IMG/VR virus record: IMGVR_UViG_3300013947_000010 | Length of the DNA: 44,515 nt | DNA from: a virus | Direction: 5' to 3' (one strand) | Shown: one piece after another, positions 3,023 to 44,515 of the stretch | How positions within the stretch are numbered: the first letter of the stretch is position 1 | How the letters are laid out: each line of letters starts with the position of its first letter | The notes under the pieces: generated by a model | Seen by the model: only the letters and a program-made list of their open reading frames with translations | What the model was told of the DNA's origin: nothing | Databases searched by the model: none | Program-made: the position numbers and the translations under genes

Positions 3023-4441
3023 TCATTCGTTATTTTCGGGGTCGGGCGTGGGTGTCTGTTCCACCAACTTCGCCTGTTCCTCCTCGTAATACTTCAAGCT
3101 CATTGCATACGCCCGTTCGGGGTCGATGAACAGGCCGGAGTGCTGGAATGCGAGGAGCGGGTGAATTTTATTGTTTTGGAGCATGGACACAAGAACCTGT
3201 GACTTGCTCTGAATGTTCTCGTAGTTCCGGCGGGTGAACTGCAACTCAATATCCTTGAGTCCCAAGTTCAAATCGCTCAGTTCACGACAGATACGAAGAA
3301 CCAACTTGAGCATTTTCTTCTCAGACTTCTTGAACATATTCTCGCTGTCCTTGGCTCTCGCTTCGGCAAGCGACCAACCATCACGAAGAAGTACCGCCGC
3401 CCCTGTGTCAGAGGTGGAAGTGCCACCGTTACGGTTCGGCATACCGCAAATTGTGAGGATTGCGTTATAACAGTCCTCTTTCAAGGTCTGCGTCTGTGAC
3501 TGGTTGAGGTCGGTAGTAACAACACCCACATCGGCGTTTGCACCGTCCACAGACTTGACCTTGATTGCGCCAAGCTGTAAGAACTCCTCGTATTCCTCTT
3601 TGGAAATATCGCAGTTAATGAACTTGATAAACGCCTGTATCACCTGTTCGATACCGTCCATGCGGTTGGAGGTGATATTGTTCAGCGTGTCAAGGAGAGG
3701 GAGGACAATCTCGAAAGAACCGAGTCTTGCATTGTTCGCCGGATACTCGAAAATGGGTATCATATCGAGGGCGTGGGGCGTGGACTCTTTCAAAATCCCG
3801 TCCTCTACGAGATAGTACATATTCTCGGTATAAATCGAGTAATGGGTAATCTCGTTATCGTCCTTGCTATACTTGACTGCCATAACAGGCTTATTGCCGA
3901 TTTCATTCGAGTAGACAACAAATGTGTCTCTTGGGTCGAGCGTATACAGTTCAAACGGGGCTTCGTCCTCCTCACCCTTTTCATCGGGAAGAACCAAACG
4001 ATACGCCGTACCGCAAATCATCTGCCACTCGACAATCTCTTGGTCTTGTGCCGCCTTGTCTTCGGCGAACATAAGCTCATTCAGACGGGTAATGCCCTGT
4101 GTGATTTCCTCGCTACCGTTCTTACCGACATACTGAATAGGCTCACCGCAGAGATAGCCAACCTTGAACGACACGATTTCATTCGCACGGTTCTCAACAA
4201 TCCTGTTGGTGATTTCGGGGCGAACCTCTTTCTGACGGTGCAGAATGGGTTGCTTTCCCTTGTAATACTCCCACAGGTAGTCAATCTCGGAGCGATTGAG
4301 GGCATGAATGGAAAGAGCCTTGAGAAGCACATCAACCACATTTTCGTCTGTGATATTTGTCACGCTTGTCTTAATGACCCTACGCCCAAACATCTGTCGT
4401 GTCTCCGATACGGGCTTGGTCTCGTCAATCACATTCGCCAC
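3023..4441 (-). CDS. Portal protein (SPP1 gp6-like)
   Basis: Long ORF downstream of terL. The best start is GTG at 4441, preceded by AGGAGGG 7 nt upstream. The ORF-track ATG at 4507 has no ribosome-binding site. Confidence 0.85.
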   Translation of the reverse strand: MANVIDETKPVSETRQMFGRRVIKTSVTNITDENVVDVLLKALSIHALNRSEIDYLWEYYKGKQPILHRQKEVRPEITNRIVENRANEIVSFKVGYLCGEPIQYVGKNGSEEITQGITRLNELMFAEDKAAQDQEIVEWQMICGTAYRLVLPDEKGEEDEAPFELYTLDPRDTFVVYSNEIGNKPVMAVKYSKDDNEITHYSIYTENMYYLVEDGILKESTPHALDMIPIFEYPANNARLGSFEIVLPLLDTLNNITSNRMDGIEQVIQAFIKFINCDISKEEYEEFLQLGAIKVKSVDGANADVGVVTTDLNQSQTQTLKEDCYNAILTICGMPNRNGGTSTSDTGAAVLLRDGWSLAEARAKDSENMFKKSEKKMLKLVLRICRELSDLNLGLKDIELQFTRRNYENIQSKSQVLVSMLQNNKIHPLLAFQHSGLFIDPERAYAMSLKYYEEEQAKLVEQTPTPDPENNE

Positions 4442-4545
4442 AGTTAATCCCTCCTTGCCGTGAAAATAAAGAAAGCGCATGAAAGTTCGACCGAAAAGGT
4501 CTCGCAATCATGCGCCATAAGACTATATCTTGTATTTCATTCTGT

Positions 4546-4592: not shown

Positions 4593-6242
4593 CTACCACG
4601 GACGCTGAAATATTTCAACCTTTTGCCCCGACAGAGATTGTGCATACTCGGCAAGCATAGCCATTCCATCGGGTACATCATCGTGCTTATTTTTACCCGC
4701 AACGGTATAGGAGCAAAGCATATCCATCATTTTCCCGTAATCGGATTTTTTTTGATAGAGGGAAGCGTCCTTGAATAGACAATGCTCCTTGACCCATGCG
4801 CTGTTGACGATTATTTTGGTCTCCTTATTTGCCGTAGTGAACTTGGTCGTGATATGCGTAACGCCGTTTTTCTTCTTCACCTCGTCCTGTATCTTCTCTG
4901 CTACACGCCTACCCGCAGAATTAGACTCGAAGCGGCAGGACTTGACCTTATCACGCACAAGGATTTCCGTCAACCGAGCGTCCACGACATTCGGCAAGCC
5001 GTTGTCGCACACACAATCGTCAATGTAGTAATCCTGCCCGTACACATACGCCACAGGCAAAAACGCATAGTCCGTACCCTTGTCCTTTGTGTCGCAGATA
5101 CCGATAATTGCGTCCGGGTCTTCCTTGGGAAGCTCGAAGTACCGCCGCAGTTCGTCAGCAGAATAGACCAAGCCCTCACGCTCAATCGGCTCGTTCATGT
5201 ACAAGGCTCTCCAACTCGCTTCGTCCATGATGTTTCTTTGCTCATGATAAAACTTGGTCGTAAAGCCTACGCCATAGGCATAGTCAAAATTCGACTCGTC
5301 ATTTTCATCGAGAGCGGGAATGACAATGAACTTCGCACGGTCACTATCTCCGTATTCCGTCTCAAGCCGTCCGATTACATCATGTACCGACCATCGTGTA
5401 GCGATATGAAGCTCCTTGCACTTATCACCGATTTTACGCTGTCTCAAGTCCGTGGTGTAGGTCTCCCACAGCTTGTCAAGCCGCTCCTTGGACAACGCCA
5501 CCTCAATACCGCTCACCAAATCGTCACAGTACAAGAGAGTAGCGGCTCGATACAGACCCGCATTGCCTGTACCGATAGATGTAAATTCGAGTGTTTCAAA
5601 TCTCTGTCGCTTGTCAATGTCGATACGACAATCCTTTGCATTGGTATTCGAGACACTAAGGCCGGGGAAAACATCGTGCCACAGATAATCTCCGTTGGGG
5701 TCGAGTATACGCAATACTTCATCGTACACTCCCCGAACGAAAGAGTTCGAGTGAGAGCCTGTCAGCATGGGTTCGTTCGGTATCTTACCTGCAAGCCATG
5801 TGAGGAAGAAGATAGCAAGGGTTGTCTTGCCGGAGCCGGGTGGGAGAGAGATGGAGAGCAAGTCCAACTTATCGTCCGCCAGCTCTTGCAGACAATCCAC
5901 CACCTGTTTCAGCACACGGCGGCGGGGCGGGTAGAACTTCTTGTCGGGCGGTCTGTTCCACTCGACATAGAGGAGATAGCTGTCAAAATCATATGGCGCA
6001 AGAGCAAGGCACACTCGCTTGTGGAGGGCAAATATATCTCTCACATCATCGTCCGACAGCTTTGTATCTCGGATAGCTTTTTCGCAGAGAGAGGAGAGGG
6101 TCTTGAGATAATCAATCCCCAACTGCTGTGTTTTCTCGTCTTTCATTGCTTCTTTACTCATACCATACAGGTCAAAGTAAGTCTGATAAGAAAACGGCTT
6201 CTTCTCAATCTGCTTCAAAATTGTTTTCAGTAATTGCTCCAT
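4593..6242 (-). CDS. terL: Terminase large subunit
   Basis: Walker A motif (LPPGSGKTT) and a C-terminal nuclease-type region. The best start is ATG at 6242 (MEQLLKTILKQ) with GGAGG 6 nt upstream. The ORF-track start at 6305 lies inside a terminator hairpin. Confidence 0.9.
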   Translation of the reverse strand: MEQLLKTILKQIEKKPFSYQTYFDLYGMSKEAMKDEKTQQLGIDYLKTLSSLCEKAIRDTKLSDDDVRDIFALHKRVCLALAPYDFDSYLLYVEWNRPPDKKFYPPRRRVLKQVVDCLQELADDKLDLLSISLPPGSGKTTLAIFFLTWLAGKIPNEPMLTGSHSNSFVRGVYDEVLRILDPNGDYLWHDVFPGLSVSNTNAKDCRIDIDKRQRFETLEFTSIGTGNAGLYRAATLLYCDDLVSGIEVALSKERLDKLWETYTTDLRQRKIGDKCKELHIATRWSVHDVIGRLETEYGDSDRAKFIVIPALDENDESNFDYAYGVGFTTKFYHEQRNIMDEASWRALYMNEPIEREGLVYSADELRRYFELPKEDPDAIIGICDTKDKGTDYAFLPVAYVYGQDYYIDDCVCDNGLPNVVDARLTEILVRDKVKSCRFESNSAGRRVAEKIQDEVKKKNGVTHITTKFTTANKETKIIVNSAWVKEHCLFKDASLYQKKSDYGKMMDMLCSYTVAGKNKHDDVPDGMAMLAEYAQSLSGQKVEIFQRPW

Positions 6243-6256
6243 AGCGTACCTCCAAT

Positions 6257-6303
6257 AAAAAAATGCGTTACCGCCATGAGGAAGACCCCATGTGCGATAA
6301 CGC
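6257..6303 (-). terminator. Intrinsic terminator at the end of the accessory island, abutting the terL ribosome-binding site
   Basis: The minus strand reads GCGTTATCGCACATGGGG-TCTT-CCTCATGGCGGTAACGC, followed by ATTTTTTTATT and then GGAGG and the terL ATG. Confidence 0.6.
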
Positions 6304-6314
6304 ACCGCTTACTG

Positions 6315-6677
6315 TTATCGTTGTGACAAATACTCGTACACAACCTTGAAATCCTTTTTGTGCTTGAAAGCGACCTTAAATTCTTCACCTTGATTTGTCG
6401 TAACCACAAGACCGCCGCCCGGAAAATAGGTGTATGTTCCGACTTTAGCGATATTATCAAGCGGAATGTACAGGTGATTATCGGTCATTGCGTTCAAAGC
6501 CCCGAAAGCAAGATACGAAGTAGCCGACTTGTTCCAAAACAGGGCTTTATCCGTCAAAGTAAGATACCCATATCCACGGAAAACAAGAGTAACTTTCGCT
6601 TTTATAATCTCAGTTCTAAGCTCGTTCATCTCAAAATCTCCTCCGTCTGCGTCCACCTCTATGGTGACGCTTTTCAT
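6315..6677 (-). CDS. PH/GRAM-like (YokE-like) domain protein
   Basis: 120-aa ORF whose pattern (GYLTLTDKALFW...IPLDNIAKV...GLVVTTNQGEEFKVAF) is typical of bacterial PH-like domains. Confidence 0.5.
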   Translation of the reverse strand: MKSVTIEVDADGGDFEMNELRTEIIKAKVTLVFRGYGYLTLTDKALFWNKSATSYLAFGALNAMTDNHLYIPLDNIAKVGTYTYFPGGGLVVTTNQGEEFKVAFKHKKDFKVVYEYLSQR

Positions 6678-6738
6678 TTTGTTTCACACATTCACCCAAG
6701 AGAACGAGTGGGAATATCAACACAGCTAAAATCCACAT
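6631..6738 (-). CDS. Small hydrophobic peptide (35 aa, MWILAVLIFPLVLLGECVKQNEKRHHRGGRRRRRF), paralog of 8615..8683
   Basis: Below the ORF-track cutoff. AGGAGA lies 5 nt upstream of the ATG. The first 21 residues align without gaps to the 8615..8683 peptide, sharing the core LxFPLVxLxE. Confidence 0.35.
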   Translation of the reverse strand: MWILAVLIFPLVLLGECVKQNEKRHHRGGRRRRRF

Positions 6739-6751
6739 ATTTCTCTCCTAG

Positions 6752-7192
6752 TCACTTGTAAACCTTTTTACCGATGGATTTCATATCGGCAGTCGGCTCT
6801 CCTATGAGAACTTCCACTTCGGAATTATCTCCAAGTGCAAAGAAATAAAGCACATCAATGGACTTGCCATTCCGTATTTCTTTCGCCATATTATCTTCTT
6901 CACCATCTACGCTGAAATATCTGTCGAGTTCAACATCATTCTGAAATGCTCTTACCGCAAAGCAAGAAGCGGCGTAGTAAGGGTCTTGACCGTTATTGAT
7001 ATAAACCGCATGAACACGAAGCATTTCATTACCGTTATTATCGGTAAACCTCTCTGCTTCGCCAAGAGTGAGGGTGAAATCCTCAAAAGTAGCTGTCTCA
7101 GTAAGCTCTTTCGGTGGTTCGGGGGTATCACCACAACCGGCCAAGCTACCAAGCAACACAAAAGAGACTAAAAGCAATACAAATCGTTTCAT
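6752..7192 (-). CDS. Lipoprotein (candidate superinfection-exclusion or surface protein)
   Basis: Signal peptide with a lipobox (LLGSLAGC). AGGAGG lies directly upstream. The position is typical of a moron. Confidence 0.7.
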   Translation of the reverse strand: MKRFVLLLVSFVLLGSLAGCGDTPEPPKELTETATFEDFTLTLGEAERFTDNNGNEMLRVHAVYINNGQDPYYAASCFAVRAFQNDVELDRYFSVDGEEDNMAKEIRNGKSIDVLYFFALGDNSEVEVLIGEPTADMKSIGKKVYK

Positions 7193-7205
7193 AACAACCT
7201 CCTAC

Positions 7206-7313
7206 AAGTAGTAAAAGTAGTTCAAATTCAAGATTTCCGGTAACTTTCACCAGATAGCCGTCCTACTGGCAAAAGTTTACGCAAAAACGGGTTTTCCACT
7301 ACTTTTACTACTT
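7206..7313. repeat. 108-bp near-palindromic element, copy 1 (PAL-1)
   Basis: Begins AAGTAGTAAAAGTAGT and ends ACTACTTTTACTACTT. The central hairpin is CCAGATA-GCCGTCC-TACTGG. It has the same length and layout as 11553..11660 and 30116..30223. Confidence 0.9.
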
Positions 7314-7879
7314 CCCGACTTTGAAATTTGCGCCTGTCGGCACTTCCGAAAGAAAGTAGCTTCACTCATACCCGATTGCTCGATTGCCTGTTTCAACGGC
7401 AAATCTCCGTTCGCCCATGCGGTGGCGGCAACATAAAATTGCTGTGTGAGCGGGAGGGGCTTCCTGCCCTTATACTTGCCCTGCCTTTTGGCAATGGCGA
7501 TACCCTCCGCTTGACGCTCAAGCGTGTTCTCCCGCTCGAACTGATAGATAGCGGCGAACACCGTCATAACAAGCCGTCCCTGCGGCGTGGTCGTGTCGAT
7601 TTTCTCCTTGTCCGAAACAAGCGAGACCTTTTTCTCCCCAAGCAAATGGACTGTGTTGAGCAAATCCTGTGTGCTACGGGAGAGACGGGAAAAGGACTCT
7701 ACATAGAGCGTATCGCCCTCTCGAAGAAACGATAGCATTTCTTGAAACTGAGGTCTGTTGGTGTCCTTACCACTCAGCTTCTCAGAGAAAACCTTTCCCA
7801 CACCAAAGGATTTCATGAGTTCGTCCTGTCTTGCCGGATTTTGTTCCGTGGTGCTTACTCGTACATAACCGACCCTCAT
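7277..7879 (-). CDS. Small serine recombinase (resolvase/invertase family)
   Basis: N-terminus MRVGYVRVSTTEQNPARQ contains the catalytic Ser motif, and there is a C-terminal HTH (GMSEATFFRKCRQ). The last 12 codons lie inside PAL-1. Confidence 0.85.
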   Translation of the reverse strand: MRVGYVRVSTTEQNPARQDELMKSFGVGKVFSEKLSGKDTNRPQFQEMLSFLREGDTLYVESFSRLSRSTQDLLNTVHLLGEKKVSLVSDKEKIDTTTPQGRLVMTVFAAIYQFERENTLERQAEGIAIAKRQGKYKGRKPLPLTQQFYVAATAWANGDLPLKQAIEQSGMSEATFFRKCRQAQISKSGSSKSSGKPVFA

Positions 7880-7892
7880 GTACTCACCTCCA

Positions 7893-8105
7893 TTACTGTT
7901 CTCGCTTCACATAGGTAAACTCAATGTCGTAGCCGAGTGCTTCCATCATCTTCACAAAGGTCTTGTTCACAATACCGTCTTTCTTCTTGATGATACGGTT
8001 GACATACTGACCTGTCGTACCAATGGCTTCACCGAGCTTTTCCTGCGTGGTATTACCCTCAAGGCATTTGACCTTTACATCGAGTTCAAGATTATTGCGT
8101 ACCAT
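7893..8105 (-). CDS. XRE-family HTH transcriptional regulator
   Basis: 70-aa ORF with an HTH (TQEKLGEAIGTTGQYVNRIIK). AAGGAGG lies upstream, and the gene sits 13 nt upstream of the recombinase gene. Confidence 0.75.
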   Translation of the reverse strand: MVRNNLELDVKVKCLEGNTTQEKLGEAIGTTGQYVNRIIKKKDGIVNKTFVKMMEALGYDIEFTYVKREQ

Positions 8106-8133: not shown

Positions 8134-8162
8134 AGTATAGCACAGGTAAAGAAGAATGTCAA
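8134..8162 (-). promoter_or_regulatory. Sigma-A-type promoter for the HTH-recombinase pair
   Basis: The minus strand reads AGTATTGACA, a 17-nt spacer, then TATACT with a TG extension (TGCTATACT). Confidence 0.6.
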
Positions 8163-8214
8163 TACTATTCGGATAAGAATTTATCTAAAATGAGCCTTTT
8201 TGTATTTTTCGGCT

Positions 8215-8612
8215 ACTCGGCGTACTCCCTGCGCCCTTGGCGGGTGGCGGCTATCCCCCGCCGGGGGTACGCCGTCCCGCCGCTTTTCGGCATGGGGTAC
8301 ACCTCCCGCCGCCGTCCCGCCGTGCTATCAATAAAGCCCCGTTTGCCGTGATAGTGCAATCAAAAGCCCCGCAACGGCTTTATTGATAGTGCATTGTACC
8401 GCTATCAATAGAACATACCCCACGGACAGCGGGAACAGCTTGCAAAAGTAAAGCGGGGGCATATACAACCATACCCCCGCACAACGCACCAGAACGCCCA
8501 GAACGGACGCAACGGCGGCGGGAGTATAGCAACATACCCCGCGCAATAAAAGCCCGTACAACGCCGCCCAGGGCGCAAATAAACCCCCGCCGCAATAGCA
8601 ACGGGGATTTAC
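8215..8612. other. GC-rich non-coding structured block (candidate large ncRNA, origin or recombination site)
   Basis: No ORF here has a ribosome-binding site. About three quarters of 8221..8320 is G+C by hand count. The block contains inverted repeat families (GGGGTAC twice, CATACCCC three times, GCAACGG three times), a stem of at least 14 bp (8325..8338 pairing with 8376..8389), a perfect 13-bp long-range helix (8303..8315 with 8512..8524), and hairpins at 8453..8480 and 8518..8542. Confidence 0.5.
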
Positions 8613-8614
8613 TG

Positions 8615-8683
8615 TCATTTATTCATGTTCAGCAATTCAGCCAACACAACCAACGGAAAAAGCAATATACAAATTACAACCAT
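8615..8683 (-). CDS. Small hydrophobic peptide (22 aa, MVVICILLFPLVVLAELLNMNK), paralog of 6631..6738
   Basis: Below the ORF-track cutoff. GGAGGG lies 6 nt upstream of the ATG. It sits immediately upstream of the GC-rich block. Confidence 0.35.
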   Translation of the reverse strand: MVVICILLFPLVVLAELLNMNK

Positions 8684-10571: not shown

Positions 10572-10786
10572 CCCCTTTTCGATAAATTTTCAATCTTTTT
10601 TGTGTTGGCTGTCCATACATATAATATAGAAAAACAACCCGCCGCAATTTCCCCATGTTCCCGCCGTTTTACTCTATTGCGGTAAAGTGTTAAAGTGATA
10701 CCCGCCAAATCCGCACGATTTTGTGAAAAAATCCGCCCCGAAAACCAAGCTGAAATCTCAGCCCAATTCCCGGAGCGGGTCTGCAT

Positions 10787-10902
10787 AGTCGAAAGTCGCA
10801 AAGTCGATAGTCGAAAGTCGTTAGTCGCTGTCAGAGTCGGAGTCGCTTTGAGAGTCGATAAGATACCGAGCTTTGATAGAGTCGGGGTCAATGTCGGAGT
10901 CG
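10787..10902. repeat. Dense array of 11 AGTCG (CGACT on the minus strand) pentamers spanning the terS stop codon
   Basis: On the plus strand AGTCG starts at 10787, 10794, 10802, 10809, 10816, 10823, 10835, 10841, 10853, 10880 and 10898. Five copies lie beyond the stop codon. Two further AAAAGTCGT copies are at 11438 and 11450, just upstream of the terS ribosome-binding site. Confidence 0.7.
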
Positions 10903-11420: not shown

Positions 11421-11552
11421 CGGTTTTACCTCCTAAAAGTCGTTTCAAAAGTCGTGTTCCCATGTCCGTTTTGCCCCGTACAGACCCTTGAAAACAGACT
11501 CCTATGATGTAATAGAGTCCTCTCCCCGGAGAACTTCTTATTCTTAATGGAG

Positions 11553-11660
11553 AAGTAGTAAAAGTAGTGGAAAATCGATTTTTCCGGTAACTTTTGCCAG
11601 ATAGGGGGTCTACTGGAGAACTTATACGCAAAAACTGATTTTGAACTACTTTTACTACTT
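11553..11660. repeat. 108-bp near-palindromic element, copy 2 (PAL-2)
   Basis: The 16-bp arms match those of PAL-1 and PAL-3. The central hairpin is CCAGATA-GGGGGTC-TACTGG. The sequences just inside the arms are inverted relative to PAL-1 and PAL-3. Confidence 0.9.
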
Positions 11661-11749
11661 CACTCCATTTTGAGCAAAAGACAATTTTGCAATCTCATTC
11701 GTATTAAATTCCAAATGTCGTTTTTTATAAGTTTTCAACACGAATAAGA

Positions 11750-15388: not shown

Positions 15389-15405
15389 CGCCCCATAAAG
15401 GGGCG
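15389..15405 (-). promoter_or_regulatory. GC hairpin downstream of VR2 (DGR target-recognition element)
   Basis: The plus strand reads CGCCCC-ATAAA-GGGGCG, the same hairpin as at 34274..34292. It is part of a 44-nt block that is 43/44 identical downstream of both VRs. Confidence 0.8.
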
Positions 15406-15410
15406 CAGAT

Positions 15411-16043
15411 TTAAGATTTAATAGAGAAAGCGGGGCGAACACCGGTGGCGACGGAAGCGGCGCTGTAGGCCGCATAACCAGAGTCGTGGACAGTGGCGAA
15501 ATCGGCGGCTGAGTCATTGGGCGTATTCTGCAACCAGTACCATTCCCAAGTACCCGTGTCCTTGCCTTGGAACGCGATACGGTTTCTAATATCTCCCATG
15601 AGCGGGAGGTATTCGCCGCCGACCTTATCCTCGTAGGGGTTCTTTCCAAAGACCTCCATAGCGGTAAGCAAACGGAGCTTATCGTCCTTATAAACGGGCT
15701 TCATACGAGCCTTGAGGGAGTCGGGGAAAGCGTCAAGGATTTCGCCGTTGAGCTTCTTACGAAGCGCACAGGCTTCATAGCCGCCCCTGTTGGTGCTGTT
15801 ATCGTTCATGGGATATTCGGTCTTGAGACAGTCCACGAACACAAACAGCATACCGTCAGTCTCTTTCCGCATAGCCATAGCGGAAACTTCTTCACCCGTC
15901 TTGAGGGTGAAGTCAATAATGTCACCGACTTCGTATTCATCGGTCTGCACCGTAGTAGAGCGGCGCACGGTCAGTTCCTCGGTCTGAATGTTAAGGAATT
16001 TCTCGAACTCAGCGAGGAGAGTCTTCTTTTCGGTATTAGTCAT
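15411..16043 (-). CDS. DGR target protein 2: stand-alone C-type-lectin-fold / DUF6273-like variable protein
   Basis: 210-aa ORF with no signal peptide or transmembrane segment. The C-terminus (WYWLQN...GVRPAFSIKS) parallels target 1 and contains VR2. Confidence 0.85.
   Translation of the reverse strand: MTNTEKKTLLAEFEKFLNIQTEELTVRRSTTVQTDEYEVGDIIDFTLKTGEEVSAMAMRKETDGMLFVFVDCLKTEYPMNDNSTNRGGYEACALRKKLNGEILDAFPDSLKARMKPVYKDDKLRLLTAMEVFGKNPYEDKVGGEYLPLMGDIRNRIAFQGKDTGTWEWYWLQNTPNDSAADFATVHDSGYAAYSAASVATGVRPAFSIKS
15432..15512 (-). repeat. DGR variable repeat 2 (VR2)
   Basis: The 81-nt alignment to the TR shows 16 differences, all at positions where the TR coding strand has adenine. Confidence 0.9.
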
Positions 16044-27857: not shown

Positions 27858-28217
27858 ATGACATTCGAGGAGAATTTGAAGCGTATCTGCAAAGATAGAG
27901 GGACTACTCCGACTGCCATAATGAAGAAATGGGGACTATCCACATCTAAAGTGTCCGCATGGTACAAAGGCTCTTTGCCAAAACAAGAGGTACTTATTCG
28001 CCTTGCCGAAGAATTAAATTGTTCGGTTATGGACTTCTTTGCAGACGAGGAGGACTTGATTGAAAAAGAAATCGTCCCCAACAATGAGGACGAAAAGGAC
28101 ATATTGCGTATCTATCGTTCTCTGCCCCGTAGAGCAAAGCATGAGTTCATGGCAATGGTATATGAATATGAAAACCGCAGAGAATTAGAGGGGGATAATA
28201 CAAGTGCTACGGGTTGA
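27858..28217 (+). CDS. XRE-family (CI-like) repressor
   Basis: 119-aa ORF with an N-terminal HTH (TPTAIMKKWGLSTSKVSAWYKG). AAAGGAGGG lies upstream, and the gene is divergent from the early operon. No S24 peptidase domain is present. Confidence 0.8.
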   Translation: MTFEENLKRICKDRGTTPTAIMKKWGLSTSKVSAWYKGSLPKQEVLIRLAEELNCSVMDFFADEEDLIEKEIVPNNEDEKDILRIYRSLPRRAKHEFMAMVYEYENRRELEGDNTSATG

Positions 28218-28271: not shown

Positions 28272-29822
28272 ACGAAAGCGGTAATATACGCTCGGTATTC
28301 GAGCCACAGTCAGCGTGAGGAGTCCATAGAGGGACAGCTTCGTGAGTGTCACGACTTCGCCCTCAAAAACGGCTTCACCATCATCAACGAATACATTGAC
28401 CGAGCTTTATCGGGGAAAACAGACAATCGCCCCAGTTTCCAACGACTCATTAAGGACAGCGAAAAACAGCAGTTTGAAGCGGTGATAATGTATACCCTTG
28501 ACCGTTTCGCTCGTAATCGCTATGACTCTGCTATCTACAAAGCAAAGCTCAAAAAGAACGGTGTCCGTATCTTTTACGCCAAGCAACCCATGCCGGATAC
28601 GCCGGAGGGCATTATCCTTGAGTCTGTCCTTGAGGGATATGCGGAATACTACTCCGAAAACCTTTCCCGTAATATCAAGCGTGGTATTCGAGAAAACGCT
28701 TTGAACTGCGTTGCCACAGGCGGGGCAAATCTGCTTCTTGGCTATACTGTTGGGGAAGATAAGAAATATGCCATCGACCCCACGGGTGCAAAGGTCGTTC
28801 AAGAGATTTTCCAAATGTACGCTGACGGCTACTCTGCAACGCAAATCGTCAATTACTGTAATGCACAGGGTTATAAGACGGCACGGGGAAATGCTTTCAA
28901 CAAAAACAGTCTGCGGACAATCCTCAGAAACGATAAATATATCGGCATATACCGCATGATGGATATTGTCGTTCCGGGCGGTATGCCGTCCATAATAGAT
29001 AAAAAGCTGTTCGACAAGGTACAATCCATGCTCAAACACAATGCGTCCGCACGAGCAAGGACAAAGGCGAAAGAAGATTATCTCCTCACGGCAAAGCTCT
29101 TTTGCGGGCATTGCGGCTCACCGATGGTTGGTGAAAGCGGTACTTCCAAAACAGGACAGGTTTATTACTACTACAAGTGCGGGAAAGCCAAGCGAGAACA
29201 CGCCTGTAAAAAGAAAGCGGAAAAGAAAGATTGGATTGAGGAGCTTGTCGTTCGCTTCACGGTTGAAAAGGTGCTGACCGATGAAAACATCAAGAGCATT
29301 GCAAAAAGGGCTATGGAGCTTATCGAAAAAGAGTCAGCCGATACCGCCTACTTGGAGGGGCTACGAGCTGACCTTAAAGAGACACAGAGAAAGATAAAAA
29401 ACCTTGTCTCTGCCATTGAGCAAGGCATTGTGTCTGCTACTACGAAAGAGCGTCTTGACGAGCTGGAACGAGATAAGACCACCATCGAGGGGCAAATCGC
29501 CCGTGAAGAAATGAAAAAGCCGCTCTTGTCTGAGGAGCGCATACGATACTGGCTCACTTCATTCAAGAACGGCGATAGAAAAGACAAAGCGTACCAACGA
29601 AAAATCATTGATACGCTTGTCAATTCCGTATATGTTTACGATGAAGACGATGGGGGCAAACGGATTGTGCTTACATTCAATCTGTCGGGCAATAACACCC
29701 TTATCCTAAAGAGTTCGGATATTGGGTGTTATGCTCCACCATATCGTGCAAATCCGAACACCGTATTTTTCGTGAAACATACATTCGGGTTTGTGCTTAC
29801 ATTGAAGAACGCTGACTTTTAG
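28272..29822 (+). CDS. int: Large serine recombinase (integrase); the start codon is non-canonical or unresolved
   Basis: Contains a resolvase-type N-terminus (KAVIYARYSSHSQREESIEGQ), a recombinase domain, a zinc ribbon (CGHCGSPM...YYKCGK) and a coiled coil. The catalytic Ser codons at 28299..28304 lie upstream of the first canonical start (GTG 28482). GGAGG at 28260..28264 lies 7 nt upstream of ACG 28272. Confidence 0.8.
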   Translation, partial: TKAVIYARYSSHSQREESIEGQLRECHDFALKNGFTIINEYIDRALSGKTDNRPSFQRLIKDSEKQQFEAVIMYTLDRFARNRYDSAIYKAKLKKNGVRIFYAKQPMPDTPEGIILESVLEGYAEYYSENLSRNIKRGIRENALNCVATGGANLLLGYTVGEDKKYAIDPTGAKVVQEIFQMYADGYSATQIVNYCNAQGYKTARGNAFNKNSLRTILRNDKYIGIYRMMDIVVPGGMPSIIDKKLFDKVQSMLKHNASARARTKAKEDYLLTAKLFCGHCGSPMVGESGTSKTGQVYYYYKCGKAKREHACKKKAEKKDWIEELVVRFTVEKVLTDENIKSIAKRAMELIEKESADTAYLEGLRADLKETQRKIKNLVSAIEQGIVSATTKERLDELERDKTTIEGQIAREEMKKPLLSEERIRYWLTSFKNGDRKDKAYQRKIIDTLVNSVYVYDEDDGGKRIVLTFNLSGNNTLILKSSDIGCYAPPYRANPNTVFFVKHTFGFVLTLKNADF

Positions 29823-30085: not shown

Positions 30086-30115
30086 GATAATTTCCTCCTA
30101 AAATTTTGATTGTTG

Positions 30116-30223
30116 AAGTAGTAAAAGTAGTTCAATTTCGGTTTTTGCGTAAACTTTCGCCAGTATGCGCGTATCTGGGAGAAGTTTACCGGAAAAACTG
30201 ATTTTCCACTACTTTTACTACTT
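30116..30223. repeat. 108-bp near-palindromic element, copy 3 (PAL-3)
   Basis: It has the same 16-bp arms. The central hairpin is CCAGTA-TGCGCG-TATCTGG. It lies between the endolysin stop codon (3 nt away) and the holin start codon (30 nt away). Confidence 0.9.
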
Positions 30224-30226
30224 GGG

Positions 30227-32076: not shown

Positions 32077-32388
32077 TTATACCTCCTTTCCCGTCAGCAG
32101 GACAGTCATTGCTTGACGAAGTTCCTCAATCGTGCGATTTCGGTCTTCCTCCGCTTTCTGTTGCTCGGACTTCTGACCGAGAACAAACCAAGATTTTCCG
32201 TCACGAACGATGTTACTGAGGAGAACCATGTCGGTATAGACCTCCTCATTCTCACCATCGAAAATCTTTACCGTACCGAGCTTGTCCTCGAATACGGAGT
32301 CGGCAATCTCACCTTGGGCAATATAGTTATTGCCGTTAAGGGTGAGATTTTCCAACTGTGTACCGTCACTCAGAGTGATTTTGTACAT
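32077..32388 (-). CDS. Hypothetical protein
   Basis: The best start is ATG at 32388 (MYKITLSDG) with GGAGG 9 nt upstream. It overlaps the 3' end of the RT gene. Confidence 0.5.
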   Translation of the reverse strand: MYKITLSDGTQLENLTLNGNNYIAQGEIADSVFEDKLGTVKIFDGENEEVYTDMVLLSNIVRDGKSWFVLGQKSEQQKAEEDRNRTIEELRQAMTVLLTGKEV

Positions 32389-33574
32389 TCTCAAGAACCT
32401 CCTTTAATTGATTGAACAGGGTATCTAAATTTTGTCGTTGCAGTTTGCTCATGATTTTGTAGTGACCTTTGAACCATGATTTGTACCAATTCTCAAACGC
32501 TACGGGAGTTATAACGCCTTTCTCGGCAACCTTTTTCATTTTCCTACGCATATCGGTAAGCCGCTTCGGATTGATTTTCTGAACCACTCTGCCCGTTTCC
32601 GTCAGCGAGTATTGCACTTGCAGAAATCTCCAATAATCAGACAGCTTACAGATACGGGTCTTTCGTAGGTTGACCGTGATACCAATGGTGTCCGCTATTA
32701 CCGTAATATCCTTGAGTAGAGCTTCTAAAAACTCTTTGCTCTCGTCTATCACATAGCTATCATCGGTGTATCGAGCGTAAAACGGCACGGAACAGACGAT
32801 TTTCACATAATTGTCTATGGGTATCGGATAACTGATACCCGCCGCTTGCGCTACTTGGTCTCCGATGTTTAGGTGCTTTCCCATGAACTTTTCGCCCGTC
32901 AAAAGCTGTTTGTCGATTTGAGCGTGTTCCAATGAATTGAAAACCGTGTGCATACAGTTCTTAAATTCATCATCGTCCATATAGGAAACATCAACCTTTG
33001 CACGGTCAAGCGTTTTGCGTAGTAACCACAGGGCGGTAGGGTCTGACACATACTTTTCCACCAACTCATAGAAAACATCGTGACGAATATTGTCGTAGTA
33101 TTTCGAGTAGTCAATCAGTAATATGTAGCCCTCGTTGGAATGGTGTTGTTGGTAATACTTCCGAAGATGGACTAACAATCTCTTTCGTGATAAATCTATC
33201 CCTCTATCTTTTAGACTCGCACAGTTATCATAGATTAGGTACGGTCTGAGGGAGGGCGTTAAGACTTCATCACACAAGCTATGTTTTACAATCCTATCAT
33301 CGAACTGTTCACCGCTCACCCATCGTGTACGACCTCGTTCGTGCAATACGAAGTCCGAGGTTGGCTTAAATTCGTAGGTTCGTTCTTTGAGTTCCCGTTG
33401 TATCTTCGACAGACCGATAAGGTAACTCATTTCAAATTTCTGTATTGGCGGCTTCCAATCGCTACCTTGCTTGGCTCGTAGGAAGCCGTCATACAGAGCA
33501 TTTCCATCAAATATCTCACGCTTATAACCGCAGTTCTCGAAAGAAGCGGTGTCGTGTTTAGCATTTACCGTCAT
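32366..33574 (-). CDS. DGR reverse transcriptase
   Basis: 402-aa ORF with the RT motif C (FYARYTDDSYV) and the NIGDQVAQAAG segment at the position of the DGR-type IGxxxSQ motif. It lies immediately downstream of the TR. Confidence 0.9.
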   Translation of the reverse strand: MTVNAKHDTASFENCGYKREIFDGNALYDGFLRAKQGSDWKPPIQKFEMSYLIGLSKIQRELKERTYEFKPTSDFVLHERGRTRWVSGEQFDDRIVKHSLCDEVLTPSLRPYLIYDNCASLKDRGIDLSRKRLLVHLRKYYQQHHSNEGYILLIDYSKYYDNIRHDVFYELVEKYVSDPTALWLLRKTLDRAKVDVSYMDDDEFKNCMHTVFNSLEHAQIDKQLLTGEKFMGKHLNIGDQVAQAAGISYPIPIDNYVKIVCSVPFYARYTDDSYVIDESKEFLEALLKDITVIADTIGITVNLRKTRICKLSDYWRFLQVQYSLTETGRVVQKINPKRLTDMRRKMKKVAEKGVITPVAFENWYKSWFKGHYKIMSKLQRQNLDTLFNQLKEVLENVQNHSE

Positions 33575-33602: not shown

Positions 33603-33637
33603 ACTCCGAAACGCTCAAATGGCTATTAAATCGGAGT
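33603..33637 (-). promoter_or_regulatory. Hairpin in the TR-to-RT spacer (candidate DGR RNA spacer structure)
   Basis: On the plus strand ACTCCGA (33603..33609) pairs with TCGGAGT (33631..33637), enclosing a 21-nt loop. Confidence 0.35.
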
Positions 33638-34255
33638 ATCGAAATCGGGGCGAACACCGTTGTCGTTGGAAGCGTTGTTGTAGTTCGCATTACCATTGTT
33701 GTTGACATTGGCGAAATTGGCGGCTGAAACAGAAATTGCCCCTTTGAATTTGTTGTCAGATTTTCTCCAACCTTTGATAAGGTTTACTTCTGCCTGTATC
33801 ATTTCCCCGAACCGAAGATACTGGTTCACATCAACAGGAAGCGTTTCAATGGCATATTGCAATTCTTGAGTGAGCGTGTAACACAGCCCGATTGCCCTAT
33901 CTTGGTGAAGTCTCCTCTCTGTGAGTTCTTCCTGTACAGTAGGGTAGATACTGTTTGCAATGTATACCTCCCGTGTGATTGCACGAAGACAATTCACAAT
34001 GGTTTTGCGCTCGTCCTCGATGAACCACTCGTCAAATGCGTCCCATCGTCTTTTCTGCCGTGTGTAAGTAGCTTGCTGTTTTTCATCAAGCTCATCAAAC
34101 GGCTTCCCGAACCGTTTTTCCAATCGCTTTTCGGCTTTGACTGTATCAAAACCGAAATCTCGGAGAAGCAAATCGGTAATATCCTTTCGCAGTTTGGTTA
34201 ATTGATGGAAAACCTCGAACTGTGAGGGTTTCCGTTTGCTTTTCAGTACAGACAT
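33626..34255 (-). CDS. Avd-like DGR accessory protein; the ORF runs on through the TR
   Basis: The best start is ATG at 34255 (MSVLKSKRKPSQF) with GGAGGAA upstream. The protein is helical and basic, with an Avd-like C-terminal helix (AEVNLIKGWRKSD). The last 30 or so codons are the TR itself (AANFANVNNNGNANYNNASNDNGVRP). Confidence 0.55.
   Translation of the reverse strand: MSVLKSKRKPSQFEVFHQLTKLRKDITDLLLRDFGFDTVKAEKRLEKRFGKPFDELDEKQQATYTRQKRRWDAFDEWFIEDERKTIVNCLRAITREVYIANSIYPTVQEELTERRLHQDRAIGLCYTLTQELQYAIETLPVDVNQYLRFGEMIQAEVNLIKGWRKSDNKFKGAISVSAANFANVNNNGNANYNNASNDNGVRPDFDTPI
33647..33727 (-). repeat. DGR template repeat (TR)
   Basis: The 81-nt core contains 25 adenines on the coding strand, mostly in AAY codons. 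It aligns without gaps to VR1 and VR2. Confidence 0.9.
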
Positions 34256-34273: not shown

Positions 34274-34292
34274 GCGCCCCATAAAGGGGCGC
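34274..34292 (-). promoter_or_regulatory. GC hairpin downstream of VR1 (DGR target-recognition element)
   Basis: The sequence is GCGCCCC-ATAAA-GGGGCGC, located 5 nt past the target-1 stop codon. Confidence 0.8.
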
Positions 34293-34296
34293 AGAT

Positions 34297-35472
34297 TTAA
34301 GATTTAATAGAGAAAGCGGGGCGAACACCGAGGCCGGCGGAAGCGTAGCCGTAGGCCGCAAGACCAGTGTCGTCGACATAGGCGAAATGGGCGGCTGATG
34401 CAACATCTCTCAGCCAGAACCATTGTCTATTGGAAATCATAGACGGGTCGTGAGCAAAGAGCGGGAACTGAGACTTGTCGATGATGTACAGATACGGAGT
34501 GGTCGAGCCATCGTTACCCGCACCGAAAATCTTACCGCCGTAAACATTCTGTTCGGTCATAAGCTCAACTGTACTGTTGTACCAAGAACCACCGCTCGGC
34601 TTACCGTTGGTAACGGCATTGACGAGCAACTGACGATGGGACAGGATATGACTTGAGCCAAATGCGCTGTTGATTTGTGTCTTTGCCTGTGCAAGCCCCT
34701 CTGTGTACATCTTAGAGCCGATGTAACCACCCGTAGTGATGTTCGTGTCGTTCATAACATGGGTGTACAGGTTTGTATCGGGGACAATTACGACATGATG
34801 GGTGGTGCAAGAGGTATCTCCCGTCTTGTAGTAATAATCGAAAGCGGCAATACGCCAGTTGACACCACCGATTACCCAGTAATCTCCGATGTACAGGTCG
34901 GCAAAAGTGCCGTTTGCAATAGCCGCCCATTGTGCGGCGGTCACGCTCGTGCCGAGGTTCTTACCACGATAGATAGCATTGTGCGCCCCCGCATTATTGA
35001 ACAGCAGAGCCGCCAGCTCGGTTGCACTTGCCTGTGCCGCCTGTGCGGAATTTGCCGCCGAGGTTGCGCTTCCACTCGCCGCTGTCGCAGAGTTCGCCGC
35101 CGCCGTTGCTTTCTGAGAAGCGGTAGTAGCGGAGGAACTTGCAGAAGAAGCCGAGCTTGCGGCGGCGGTTTTTGCGTTCTCAGCGTTCTGTGCCGATGTT
35201 GCCGCTTCGGACGCTTTTGTGGTCGCTGTACTGGCGGCATTGGTAGCCTGTGTTGCTTTCTGAGAAATGGTGTCCATGTTCCCGGCAAGCTGGTTCATGG
35301 CGGCGTTCATGGCGTTTGCGTCTGCCGCCCCGAAGAAAGACTTTTCCTTTTTGGTGTACACGGTCATGTCCTTAAAGGAAACTGTACCGTCCTCGTTGTT
35401 GACCTGTGCATACTTTTTCAACCCATTCCACACAGCGTCTTCATAATCCGTGGGTAAATTTGTCCATGCCAT
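34297..35472 (-). CDS. DGR target protein 1: tail fibre / receptor-binding protein with a C-type-lectin-fold variable C-terminus
   Basis: 391-aa ORF with a MAWTNLPTDY N-terminus, an Ala/Ser/Thr-rich coiled stalk, and a C-terminus (WFWLRD...GVRPAFSIKS) that contains VR1. Confidence 0.85.
   Translation of the reverse strand: MAWTNLPTDYEDAVWNGLKKYAQVNNEDGTVSFKDMTVYTKKEKSFFGAADANAMNAAMNQLAGNMDTISQKATQATNAASTATTKASEAATSAQNAENAKTAAASSASSASSSATTASQKATAAANSATAASGSATSAANSAQAAQASATELAALLFNNAGAHNAIYRGKNLGTSVTAAQWAAIANGTFADLYIGDYWVIGGVNWRIAAFDYYYKTGDTSCTTHHVVIVPDTNLYTHVMNDTNITTGGYIGSKMYTEGLAQAKTQINSAFGSSHILSHRQLLVNAVTNGKPSGGSWYNSTVELMTEQNVYGGKIFGAGNDGSTTPYLYIIDKSQFPLFAHDPSMISNRQWFWLRDVASAAHFAYVDDTGLAAYGYASAGLGVRPAFSIKS
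34318..34398 (-). repeat. DGR variable repeat 1 (VR1)
   Basis: The 81-nt alignment to the TR shows 17 differences, all at TR adenine positions. Confidence 0.9.
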
Positions 35473-44132: not shown

Positions 44133-44465
44133 TTACCTCCTGTAAATAATGTGATTTTTGTCTATCACAGCCCGGTACCGTCCGAGCATACGATAGATTG
44201 TTGCGTCCTGTGTATTCGGTATAGGTTCGAGAAGCATACGAGTGAAATTGCGTTCCATAAGAAGTTCATCTATGAAAGCGGCAATCTCTTTGCACTCGGC
44301 TTTCTTACCTGTTTTTTTGTTCGAGTAGACATTAAGCTCATAAGTCACCGCCGCATGATTTTCCTGCCCACTCTGCGTCTGAGAGTTTCGGAATGTGGCG
44401 TTGTCTATCTCTACGAGAGATACGCAAGGAAAAGAGGCGGGTGCGCTGACATATTCGCCCGTCAT
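44133..44465 (-). CDS. Tail completion / tail terminator-position protein
   Basis: 110-aa ORF between the gp10-like gene (across the junction) and the major tail gene. Its start codon lies inside the 77-nt terminal repeat. Confidence 0.5.
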   Translation of the reverse strand: MTGEYVSAPASFPCVSLVEIDNATFRNSQTQSGQENHAAVTYELNVYSNKKTGKKAECKEIAAFIDELLMERNFTRMLLEPIPNTQDATIYRMLGRYRAVIDKNHIIYRR

Positions 44466-44515
44466 AAAGATTTTCGGGTATTTCGCCCGTACCTTTGCGG
44501 AAATCTCTGAGAAGA
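44439..44515. repeat. Terminal direct repeat, identical to 1..77
   Basis: Exact 77-nt match to the start of the window. Confidence 0.9.

Follow-up and report, generated by a model that had tools for sequence, protein, structure and literature searches.

Genomic setting of the non-coding block

The window, by which we mean the whole stretch of 44,515 nucleotides that was analysed (IMG/VR record IMGVR_UViG_3300013947_000010), contained the genome of a 44.4-kb temperate siphophage of gut Clostridia, which was assembled as a circle of 44,438 bp with a 77-nt terminal overlap. The phage is a common gut prophage. The exact 70-aa HTH protein encoded beside the block was found in 466 index blocks of the sequence collection, and the closest species-representative genomes were those of Lachnospiraceae and other Clostridia, with distant homologues only. 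All the genes were found on the minus strand. The block (8215–8612) is flanked by the last small gene of the replication module on one side and by the large-terminase operon on the other, and it is the junction of the replication/early operon and the packaging/late operon. The genes and the promoter around it were the following.

8615–8683, minus strand: hydrophobic mini-ORF of 22 aa (MVVICILLFPLVVLAELLNMNK), preceded by a GGAGG ribosome-binding site of its own; it closes the upstream (replication/early) operon
8134–8162, minus strand: sigma-70-type promoter, TTGACA-17-TGcTATACT, with an extended -10 and 11 of 12 matches, which drives the HTH and recombinase genes
7893–8105, minus strand: gene of the 70-aa XRE-type HTH protein (Pfam HTH_3)
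7277–7879, minus strand: gene of a small serine recombinase of 200 aa, resolvase/invertase type (PF00239, E = 7e-41; phrog_125 'DNA invertase')
4593–6305, minus strand: large terminase gene, in the same operon as the portal and the major head protein
3023–4507, minus strand: SPP1-type portal gene (SPP1 Gp6-like, PF05133)

The preliminary description had set the block between the hydrophobic mini-ORF and the promoter of the HTH-recombinase pair, and the coordinates above bear this out. In the alignment, the amino-acid sequence of the mini-ORF was conserved in diverged relatives, and the promoter was conserved in relatives as well. The serine recombinase was absent from three related loci (L385, L001, and L136) and was replaced in L005 by an enzyme of 28% identity; it is an accessory and dispensable gene. 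A DNA invertase is common in the Heliusvirales, in the description of which the present site is not mentioned (PMC11283538).

Composition, repeats, and helices

The block is a real, conserved region and, as had been proposed, non-coding. Its ORFs were not conserved in the relatives, where the insertions and deletions in this region were not multiples of three. The reported G+C content of 76 in 100 nucleotides at 8221–8320 was found to be the highest 100-nt value in the genome, and the five G+C-richest windows of this size all started at 8221–8227. A content of at least 70% G+C was reached in only 0.1% of the 100-nt windows, all of which started between 8206 and 8249. The whole block contained 60% G+C against 48% in the genome.

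The repeats and helices listed previously do exist. GGGGTAC was located at 8264 and 8294, and CATACCCC at 8414, 8470, and 8533 and nowhere else in the window; similarly, TATTGATAG was present in exactly three copies in the block and in none elsewhere in the 44.5 kb. GCAACGG was also found at its three positions (8371, 8509, and 8598), but five further copies were present elsewhere, and this repeat therefore carries no information. The repeats of the block were in mixed orientation. The perfect 13-bp pairing of 8303–8315 with 8512–8524, the perfect 14-bp stem of 8325–8338 with 8376–8389, and the hairpin at 8453–8480, which was also flagged as terminator-like on the minus strand, were all recovered. 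As a single strand, the block folded far more stably than its dinucleotide shuffles (z = -6.48 and -6.44 on the two strands).

Layout of the conserved elements

On the gene strand, the order of the elements was the terminator, a G/T-skewed spacer, two dyads with an additional TTGAYAG half-site, the palindrome TACCCCCGGAGGGGGAA, a fixed distance of 38 bp, AGGGAGT..GAGTAGCC, and an A-tract. The positions of these elements in the window were as follows.

8576–8607, minus strand: intrinsic terminator of the upstream operon, TCCCCGTTGCTATTGCGGCGGGGG followed by TTTATTT
8430–8575, minus strand: spacer of variable length, G+T-rich and A-poor, with the short repeats GGGCTTT, GGGCGTT, and GGGGTAT and the hairpin 8453–8480
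8402–8429, minus strand: dyad unit 1, CTGTCC-N15-TTGATAG
8381–8389, minus strand: extra half-site B (CTATCAATA), between the two dyads
8325–8354, minus strand: dyad unit 2, CTATCA-N17-TTGATAG, the most conserved half-site pair, with nearly invariant alignment columns
8264–8323, minus strand: GC-rich linker with a duplication (CGCCGTCCCGCCG at 8270 and 8310; GGGGTAC at 8264 and 8294)
8252–8269, no strand assigned: near-invariant palindrome, TACCCCCGGCGGGGGATA in the window against the family consensus TACCCCCGGAGGGGGAA, with invariant alignment columns
8231–8251, no strand assigned: GC-rich interval of fixed length and variable sequence, from the palindrome to AGGGAGT
8195–8230, minus strand: right-hand module with invariant columns, consisting of AGGGAGT (8224–8230), GAGTAGCC (8211–8218), and the A-tract CCGAAAAATACAAAAAGG (8195–8212)

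The hairpin and T-run of the terminator were kept in the relatives with different stems, e.g., AGCCCCGC..GCGGGGCTTTT and AGCCCCGG..CCGGGGCTTTT. The spacer aligned poorly among the relatives; in 27 representatives it contained 7–25% A and about 55–72% G+T, and GGGCTT was the commonest 6-mer. The half-site spacing of dyad unit 2 was 21–23 nt in all dyad-bearing relatives, and site A, which is the TTGAYAG half of unit 1, was separated from site C, the CTRTCA half of unit 2, by a constant 53–55 nt. The CTGTC/GACAG pair of unit 1 was one of only two helices that RNAalifold kept across the relatives. No signal of co-variation of the GATAG and GACAG variants with the recombinase or HTH lineage was found, because single phages mix both variants.

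The distance from the start of the palindrome to GGGAGT was 38 nt in 49 of the 66 unique sequences (range 36–41). The distance from the dyads to the palindrome fell into classes of 33–35, 42–44, 53–56, 64, 76, and 109 nt. It was 33 bp in most relatives, whereas the duplication in the linker, which is also the source of one arm of the 13-bp long-range helix, stretches it to 64 bp in the window and in only a few other lineages. The six classes lay within 0–0.38 helical turn of one another (mean resultant length 0.82–0.88 at periods of 10.5–11 bp; p about 0.02). The junctions of the mosaic with other gene modules were found directly after the right-hand module, and L005 diverged right after AAAAAGG. 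As read from the sequence, such a geometry of fixed and phased spacings is typical of a protein-DNA assembly.

Linkage to the large terminase gene

In 84 IMG/VR stretches, an exact copy of the palindrome 17-mer was present, and about 70 of these stretches showed the same architecture upstream of a large terminase gene. Every locus in the group of the window had the palindrome on the same strand as the terminase gene and 1.3–2.4 kb upstream of that gene. A distant group, in which the terminase was only 34–40% identical, had the same layout 0.8–1.5 kb upstream of the terminase gene, with GACAG repeats, the palindrome, 24 nt, and GGGTGAG..CCGCAAAAATTAAAAAG at the offset seen in the group of the window. 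Of the 19 distant-group loci in which enough downstream DNA was available, 18 had this layout, and the opposite orientation was never seen. With tblastn, no homologue of the upstream 97-aa protein, the 70-aa HTH protein, or the recombinase of the window was detected in the distant group. L136 kept the palindrome module together with the HTH and terminase genes, with wholly different genes upstream. The module is co-inherited with the terminase/packaging operon on the same strand. The element was absent from phages of the L054 type, in which the upstream gene and the terminase gene are oppositely oriented, and these phages are uninformative.

In both phage groups, a small XRE-type HTH gene was always encoded just after the palindrome module. 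In the group of the window, no protein other than the 70-aa HTH protein was encoded consistently in the stretch from the block to the large terminase gene, and other small HTH proteins with a similar C-terminal motif occupied this slot in the distant group. The ORF of 104/120 aa before the terminase gene was absent in close relatives, and the only conserved small protein was the 70-aa HTH protein. No ORF of the window matched a TerS family in Pfam or PHROGs; therefore, the DNA-binding protein proposed below is left unnamed. A PDB sequence search with the large terminase, the 120-aa ORF, and the HTH protein gave nothing informative. No match to the block was found by blastn against GenBank phages and PLSDB plasmids, and a literal text search of the literature for the palindrome gave irrelevant matches only. 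The HTH protein was also tried as a marker for isolates with mapped ends and was discarded: only three GenBank phages carried a homologue, and in these it stood behind integrase genes, a different context that lacked the palindrome.

Contig ends around the palindrome

An end was accepted as a contig end only where the contig range showed it, where the locus covered the entire contig, or where adaptor sequence was present. Seven independent ends were found in a 62-nt stretch around the palindrome and eight in the other ~440 intergenic nucleotides, an enrichment of about seven-fold (P about 0.001) that assembly artefacts could explain. Two contigs from different strains and samples, L012 and L267, ended at the identical nucleotide (...GGGGGAACGCGCCCCGCC|), which corresponds to 8242|8241 inside the interval 8231–8251. 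L267 and L198 ran directly into Nextera adaptor sequence; transposase-based libraries normally put no adaptors on natural DNA ends, which weighs against reading these adaptor-capped ends as termini. On the other side, L081, L082, L293, and L406 began nearby. The ends did not converge on one point. Relative to the first base of the palindrome core, the right-hand contigs started at -20, -7, +2, and +28 and the left-hand contigs ended at +26 and +41. The breaks could instead be caused by poor coverage of a very GC-rich palindrome or by branching of the assembly graph at a segment common to co-occurring strains.

The block as a candidate packaging site

In its behaviour, the block resembles a DNA site to which proteins bind, placed where the packaging genes begin, rather than a structured RNA. 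Among the four functions that the preliminary description had offered, a packaging site is the one that fits best. We regard the block as a composite double-stranded-DNA site of protein assembly, most likely the recognition and cleavage region of the terminase (pac or cos), with a probability of about 0.5. The multi-part architecture (an invariant palindrome, a fixed 38-bp spacing, and phased dyads) and the co-oriented linkage to the terminase gene fit this reading, whereas the circular assembly, which like that of L377 runs uninterrupted through the block, and the contigs, most of which read through it, count against it.

In the order of events that we propose, the early operon would stop at the terminator (8576–8607), and a DNA-binding component of the packaging machinery would sit on the TTGAYAG dyads and half-site (8325–8429), which would share a helix face with the invariant palindrome (8252–8269). 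The nuclease may be positioned by the palindrome, by the AGGGAGT/GAGTAGCC motifs exactly 38 bp away, and by the A-tract. The DNA would then be cut in or near the 24-bp interval of fixed length, around 8242|8241, and the HTH gene, the large terminase gene, and the head genes would lie in the direction of packaging. Among characterised proteins, the large terminase was closest to those of Tuc2009, P335, ul36, and related phages (25–27% identity), which we take to be pac-type phages. The resemblance of both proteins, large terminase and portal, to their counterparts in pac-type phages makes us lean towards headful (pac) packaging over cohesive ends (cos).

Alternative functions of the block

Every feature that is linked to the terminase gene is linked just as much to the beginning of the late operon; a role in transcription therefore has to be weighed, and we consider it rather unlikely. 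The block would then be the upstream control region of the late/packaging operon, in which the palindrome and AGGGAGT/GAGTAGCC would be operators or enhancer-like sites for the small HTH protein or another phage or host regulator, and the A-tract would be a UP-like promoter element. In both phage groups, the element was always followed within 16–50 nt by a sigma-70-like promoter and then by the small HTH gene, homologues of which are annotated as 'transcriptional regulator' in phage records; a 13-bp palindrome is also of typical operator size for a dimeric HTH protein. However, the distance from the A-tract to the -35 hexamer was neither fixed nor phased and was 16, 18, 31, 35, or 48 nt depending on the lineage, and in L005, where the promoter and the first genes were replaced, the element was still 96% identical. 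The promoter is already near consensus and should need no activator, and a palindrome about 90 bp upstream of the -35 hexamer is unusual for autorepression. More distant HTH homologues (52–58% identical) occurred without the palindrome, and the clustering of contig ends is not explained by a control region.

For a complex recombination site, two dyads with the right geometry are present; however, they are retained where the recombinase is missing or where an unrelated one stands beside them, and a partner site is lacking. In such a reading, which we judge improbable, the TTGAYAG dyads (8325–8429) would be a res-, six-, or hix-like site of the adjacent recombinase that serves in dimer resolution, in the re-circularisation of terminally redundant DNA after injection, or possibly in autorepression of the recombinase. 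The resolvases of Tn3 and gamma-delta repress their own operon at res. The resolvase/invertase gene lies about 250 bp downstream of the dyads. These are two units of 28–30 bp with conserved outer half-sites, ~105 bp in all, against a subsite size of about 25–34 bp; presumably, the size of the set matches the range of resolvase/invertase binding sites, and in our judgement the half-site CTATCAATAAAG resembles the Hin half-site TTATCAAAAACC. GAYAG sites were present in every locus with a recombinase of the window type, and L001, L136, L149, and L223, which contained neither this nor another recombinase, had no GAYAG sites. On the other hand, L385 had a 100%-identical HTH protein and both dyads intact without any recombinase, and in L005, L157, and L030 the dyads were kept beside a different recombinase of 28–31% identity to that of the window. 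In L003, L004, L142, and L146, that other recombinase was present and the dyads were absent. In the distant group, GACAG repeats flanked the palindrome mostly without a recombinase. The recombinase was therefore rejected as the owner of the dyads, since their co-occurrence across about 70 loci was partial and was broken in both directions. No second dyad, exact half-site, or partner site was found elsewhere in the 44.5-kb genome, and more than 100 homologous loci were all collinear, without any variant in which a sub-segment was inverted.

A phage replication origin, with the repeated motifs as iterons and the AT-rich promoter region as the unwinding element, is very unlikely and is not favoured by the comparison with relatives. 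The short motifs are repeated at regular spacing, the block is found where the replication module ends, with the primase-helicase, polymerase, and recombination genes upstream of it, and an AT-rich stretch (8134–8210) adjoins it. Against this, the conserved core followed the terminase operon where the upstream replication genes differed or were absent, the block is the most GC-rich part of the genome, the primase-helicase gene lies 4.5 kb away, and a more classical iteron array, with at least nine copies of CGACT at 7–8-nt spacing, was found in the early region at 10783–10857.

A large structured non-coding RNA transcribed from the block, of the ROOL/GOLLD kind or new, is highly improbable: the strong folding (z about -6.5) that speaks for it is symmetric between the strands, as expected for DNA inverted repeats, and the Rfam scan of the whole window, with ROOL and GOLLD included, gave no family at the gathering threshold and only chance-level hits at relaxed settings, the best of which was a microRNA model. 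In 17 diverged homologues, RNAalifold kept only 10 pairs (-8.94 kcal/mol, covariation term -0.21), which were inverted motifs like those of protein sites. The fold z in the relatives ranged from +1.8 to -6, i.e., the excess stability was not conserved. The 13-bp long-range helix requires the duplication found only in the lineage of the window and is missing from most relatives, and the 14-bp stem is reduced in relatives to a common motif of 7–9 bp. On neither strand did the block contain a promoter-like site, its upstream end carries a conserved intrinsic terminator, and length changes in steps of the helical turn are a property of duplex DNA.

Comparison with known systems

The cos sites of lambda (cosQ-cosN-cosB) and of Gram-positive siphophages are likewise non-coding, multi-part sites directly upstream of the terminase operon, at the junction of the map ends. 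They share with the block a partly symmetric core, phased flanking repeats of protein-binding sites, a bendable A-rich segment, and a G+C content above that of the rest of the genome. Unlike these sites, the block is not followed by a small terminase gene (an equivalent of Nu1/TerS) and has no sequence similarity to them, and its suspected cut interval varies in sequence between relatives. The repeats of the block are on the far side from the terminase genes; cosB of lambda, by contrast, is located between cosN and Nu1.

The pac sites of SPP1 (pacL-pacC-pacR), P22, and P1 have multiple binding boxes on the flanks of the cleavage region, as does the putative cleavage region here. The portal of the window is SPP1 Gp6-like, the genome assembled as a circle, and the scatter of the contig starts over about 50 bp resembles imprecise pac cleavage. 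Known pac sites are usually inside or next to the small terminase gene, whereas no such gene was recognisable here.

The res, six, and hix sites (Tn3/gamma-delta, Sin, beta, and Hin/Gin) resemble the dyads in their 28–30-bp units, in the cluster of ~105 bp, and in the location just upstream of a resolvase/invertase operon. They differ in that dyads of the window type persist without a recombinase or beside an unrelated one, that similar GACAG repeats are present in recombinase-free phages, and that no partner site or inverted variant was found; res also has no counterpart of the conserved palindrome module. By pure analogy, the arrangement recalls P1, where pac and loxP/Cre likewise combine a recombinase gene and sites near the packaging start, as may be the case here. 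Sites so close to the start could be carried twice in the terminal redundancy of the first headful, allowing cyclisation after injection. P1 Cre is a tyrosine recombinase, whereas that of the window is a serine recombinase that is frequently absent, and its action on the dyads is suggested by analogy only.

A wider proposal, which we put forward as doubtful, is that the string 'palindrome, 38 bp, RGGKGAG, A-tract' is shared as the packaging signal by gut Clostridia phages of a very large lineage in which a canonical small terminase is missing. DNA recognition on behalf of the large terminase would there fall to the XRE-type HTH protein. The recombinase of many members would use the dyads to re-circularise or resolve the packaged genomes in the manner of P1 Cre/lox, and the G/T-skewed spacer at the free end would perhaps act as a Chi-like shield against host exonuclease.

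Significance for the phage lineage

The result strikes one plausible-looking candidate from the list of large phage-associated structured RNAs. The phage is very common in human gut metagenomes, and the 17-mer of its palindrome marks about 70 viral contigs of at least two deeply diverged terminase groups. Should the palindrome module indeed be the packaging signal, it would provide a sequence landmark for orienting and delimiting the genomes of this lineage, and it would help to predict transduction by these prophages. It would also offer a system in which to study how DNA is found by a terminase whose small subunit is not recognisable.

Genome and gene order

The first 77 nt of the window were found to overlap exactly with the last 77 (1-77 = 44439-44515), so the assembly is circular and the genome measures 44,438 bp. 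An ENA contig (L377; 44,557 nt, k = 119) contained the same genome, assembled independently and opened elsewhere. The minus strand carries nearly all of the genes, in the following order of transcription.

Gene order in the window
Minus strand: tail genes, including a diversity-generating retroelement, then the endolysin gene
Minus strand, after the endolysin gene: helicase, methyltransferase, DNA polymerase, YqaJ-type exonuclease, primase
Minus strand, after the primase gene: small ORFs in series, then the block (8215-8612)
After the block: HTH gene, small serine recombinase, DUF5067 protein, large terminase, SPP1-type portal, major head protein
27.8-29.8 kb, plus strand: lysogeny module with CI-like HTH repressor (27858-28217) and large serine integrase (28482-29822)

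The integrase contained Recombinase, Zn_ribbon_recom and Resolvase domains, and its N-terminus is apparently cut off by the listed ORF start. Relatives were found within bacterial contigs of 80-580 kb, which shows that the phage is temperate; the closest matches in genome collections were Lachnospiraceae and other Clostridia.

The retroelement comprised a reverse transcriptase (32366-33574) and repeats at 33604-33727, 34275-34398 and 15389-15512. The template-like repeat adjoining the reverse transcriptase was 65% identical to the reference copy. The tail-fibre gene (34297-35472) has one variable copy at its 3' end; a 210-aa gene of the early region (15411-16043), 18 kb distant, has a second copy there, 89% identical to the first, which suggests that this gene is a remote second target. 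In the presumed tape-measure gene (1466 aa), a unit of 72-78 nt is repeated in tandem about five times at 39245-39781, with 60-83% identity.

Features and conservation of the block

The analysis identifies the block as a conserved DNA site with several parts, not as a structured RNA. All sequence statements of the preliminary description were confirmed on recheck. The stretch 8221-8320, with 76 G or C in 100 bases, is the most G+C-rich in the genome; CATACCCC is present three times, only inside the block, where GGGGTAC is present twice; and the perfect complementarities of 13 and 14 bp are there. The fold was far more stable than that of dinucleotide shuffles (z = -6.48 and -6.44 on the two strands), equal values being expected from inverted repeats in duplex DNA. 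The signal is real, beyond chance.

More than 150 homologous loci (numbered with L) were gathered from IMG/VR and metagenomes by searching with the flanking proteins. Many shared the gene order 97-aa protein, mini-ORF, block, promoter, HTH, terminase gene, and their blocks were 55-96% identical to that of the window, a range suitable for weighing structural against sequence constraint.

Features of the block and its flanks
8615-8683, minus: hydrophobic 22-aa mini-ORF (MVVICILLFPLVVLAELLNMNK), preceded by a ribosome-binding site of its own
8576-8607, minus: intrinsic terminator; hairpin kept in relatives, stem sequence varies
Terminator to dyads, minus: spacer of variable length, G+T-rich and A-poor on the gene strand
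8402-8429 and 8325-8354, minus: dyads CTRTCN-N15-17-TTGAYAG, with an extra half-site between
Dyads to palindrome, minus: GC-rich linker, lengthened by duplication in the window's lineage
8252-8269: near-invariant palindrome TACCCCCGGAGGGGGAA
After the palindrome: interval of 24 nt, constant in length but not in sequence
8195-8230, minus: AGGGAGT, GAGTAGCC and A-tract
8162->8134, minus: near-consensus sigma-70 promoter, then the 70-aa HTH gene

The amino acids of the mini-ORF were kept across relatives despite diverged DNA, and its product may be a small membrane peptide. The half-sites of a dyad were separated by 21-23 nt and the dyads by 53-55 nt. Between the last dyad and the palindrome, distances fell into classes of 33-35, 42-44, 53-56, 64, 76 and 109 nt, all sharing one helical phase (mean resultant length 0.82-0.88, periods 10.5-11 bp), which points to a constraint on protein-bound duplex DNA.

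Linkage to the terminase operon

The exact 17-mer of the palindrome was scanned through IMG/VR, and the matches were searched for the proteins of the window. The scan recovered the window's own group, as expected, and a second group with a large terminase only 34-40% identical, in which tblastn detected no homologue of three of the window's proteins (97-aa protein, 70-aa HTH, recombinase). The layout of the second group was the same: GACAG repeats, palindrome, 24 nt, GGGTGAG..CCGCAAAAATTAAAAAG, promoter and a small XRE-like HTH, followed by variable cargo genes and the terminase gene. In every locus of the window's group, and in 18 of the 19 second-group loci with sufficient downstream DNA, the terminase gene was located 0.8-2.4 kb downstream of the palindrome on the same strand. 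L136 kept the palindrome module (palindrome, AGGGAGT and A-tract) with entirely different upstream genes, and L005 contained a block 96% identical with all sequence past the A-tract replaced. This pattern indicates that the inherited unit is the element plus the start of the packaging operon, and neither the replication module nor the recombinase.

In other gut phages, some classified as Ca. Heliusvirales, large serine recombinase/integrase genes were directly followed by more distant homologues of the 70-aa HTH (52-69% identical; L305-L325; GenBank PV036450, PV036412, PP197246). The palindrome module was absent from these loci.

Proposed role in packaging and rival explanations

The most likely role of the block, with a probability of about one half, is as the place where phage DNA is recognised and cut for packaging. 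The portal is SPP1-like, and the nearest characterised large terminases (25-27% identity) are those of Tuc2009, P335, ul36 and related phages, which use headful (pac) packaging. No HNH endonuclease was recognisable, nor a small terminase subunit anywhere in the genome. Together these lead us to lean toward pac rather than cos.

Contig ends were counted only if backed by contig coordinates or adaptor sequence. L012 and L267, different strains from different samples, both ended at ...GGGGGAACGCGCCCCGCC, at a point 11 nt short of AGGGAGT and 26 nt from base 1 of the palindrome core; Nextera adaptor sequence directly continued L267 and L198. On the opposite side, contigs started at -20, -7, +2 and +28 relative to the same base. 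Of the 15 ends, seven fell in a stretch of 62 nt out of about 500 (P about 0.001). The cluster fits a physical DNA end and is not proof of one, since GC-rich palindromes and strain-shared segments also break assemblies and the positions were not unique. The main rival explanation, in which the block would serve as upstream control of the late operon, is possible, if on the unlikely side.

A res-like function of the dyads is a minority possibility. They match resolvase/invertase sites in size and half-site layout and were present in all loci with the window-type recombinase. However, L385 keeps the dyads and an identical HTH without a recombinase; in L005, L157 and L030 the dyads adjoin a second recombinase that shares only 28-31% identity with that of the window; further phages have this second enzyme without dyads; and GACAG repeats flank the palindrome in recombinase-less phages. 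The link is therefore broken in both directions. Neither a partner site in the genome nor an inverted variant was found. In all likelihood the recombinase is accessory cargo in a hot spot between the HTH and large terminase genes (6315-7192 in the window; L377-L386), where this recombinase, a DUF5067 protein, 104/120-aa ORF, 176-aa ORF, small membrane proteins and Mrr-like nuclease varied between genomes otherwise >95% identical.

An element of about 120 nt, palindromic and with arms ending in AAGTAGTAAAAGTAGT, was present three times (74-95% alike): right after the HTH(-recombinase) operon (7193-7325), inside the early region (11540-11662) and right after the endolysin gene (30103-30224). This 16-mer was found in at least 97 related loci. 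Possible identities are a large bidirectional terminator, a site bound by a regulator, and the sequence on which the serine recombinase really acts.

An origin of replication, also proposed earlier, is improbable for the block, given that the inherited unit is not the replication module. CGACT recurs at least nine times with 7-8-nt spacing in a dense, iteron-like array (10783-10857) located in the 3' end of an early ORF, and this array is a better origin candidate than the block.

The large structured RNA suggested in the preliminary description was not borne out, and we give it very little credence: Rfam gave no family match, no promoter was found inside the block, which a terminator precedes, and the helical-phase spacing steps are a constraint of duplex DNA. 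RNAalifold on 17 diverged cores kept only two short helices (10 pairs, -8.9 kcal/mol), namely the CTGTC/GACAG motif pair and the palindrome. One arm of the 13-bp long-range helix comes from the duplication, which most relatives lack, and the 14-bp stem is reduced to the shared motif in relatives. Excess stability was not conserved across sixteen representatives (z from +1.8 to -6); dyad-less lineages gave z near zero on the antisense strand and +1.8 to -2.0 on the gene strand.

The gut phage lineage to which the block belongs is very prevalent and little studied.
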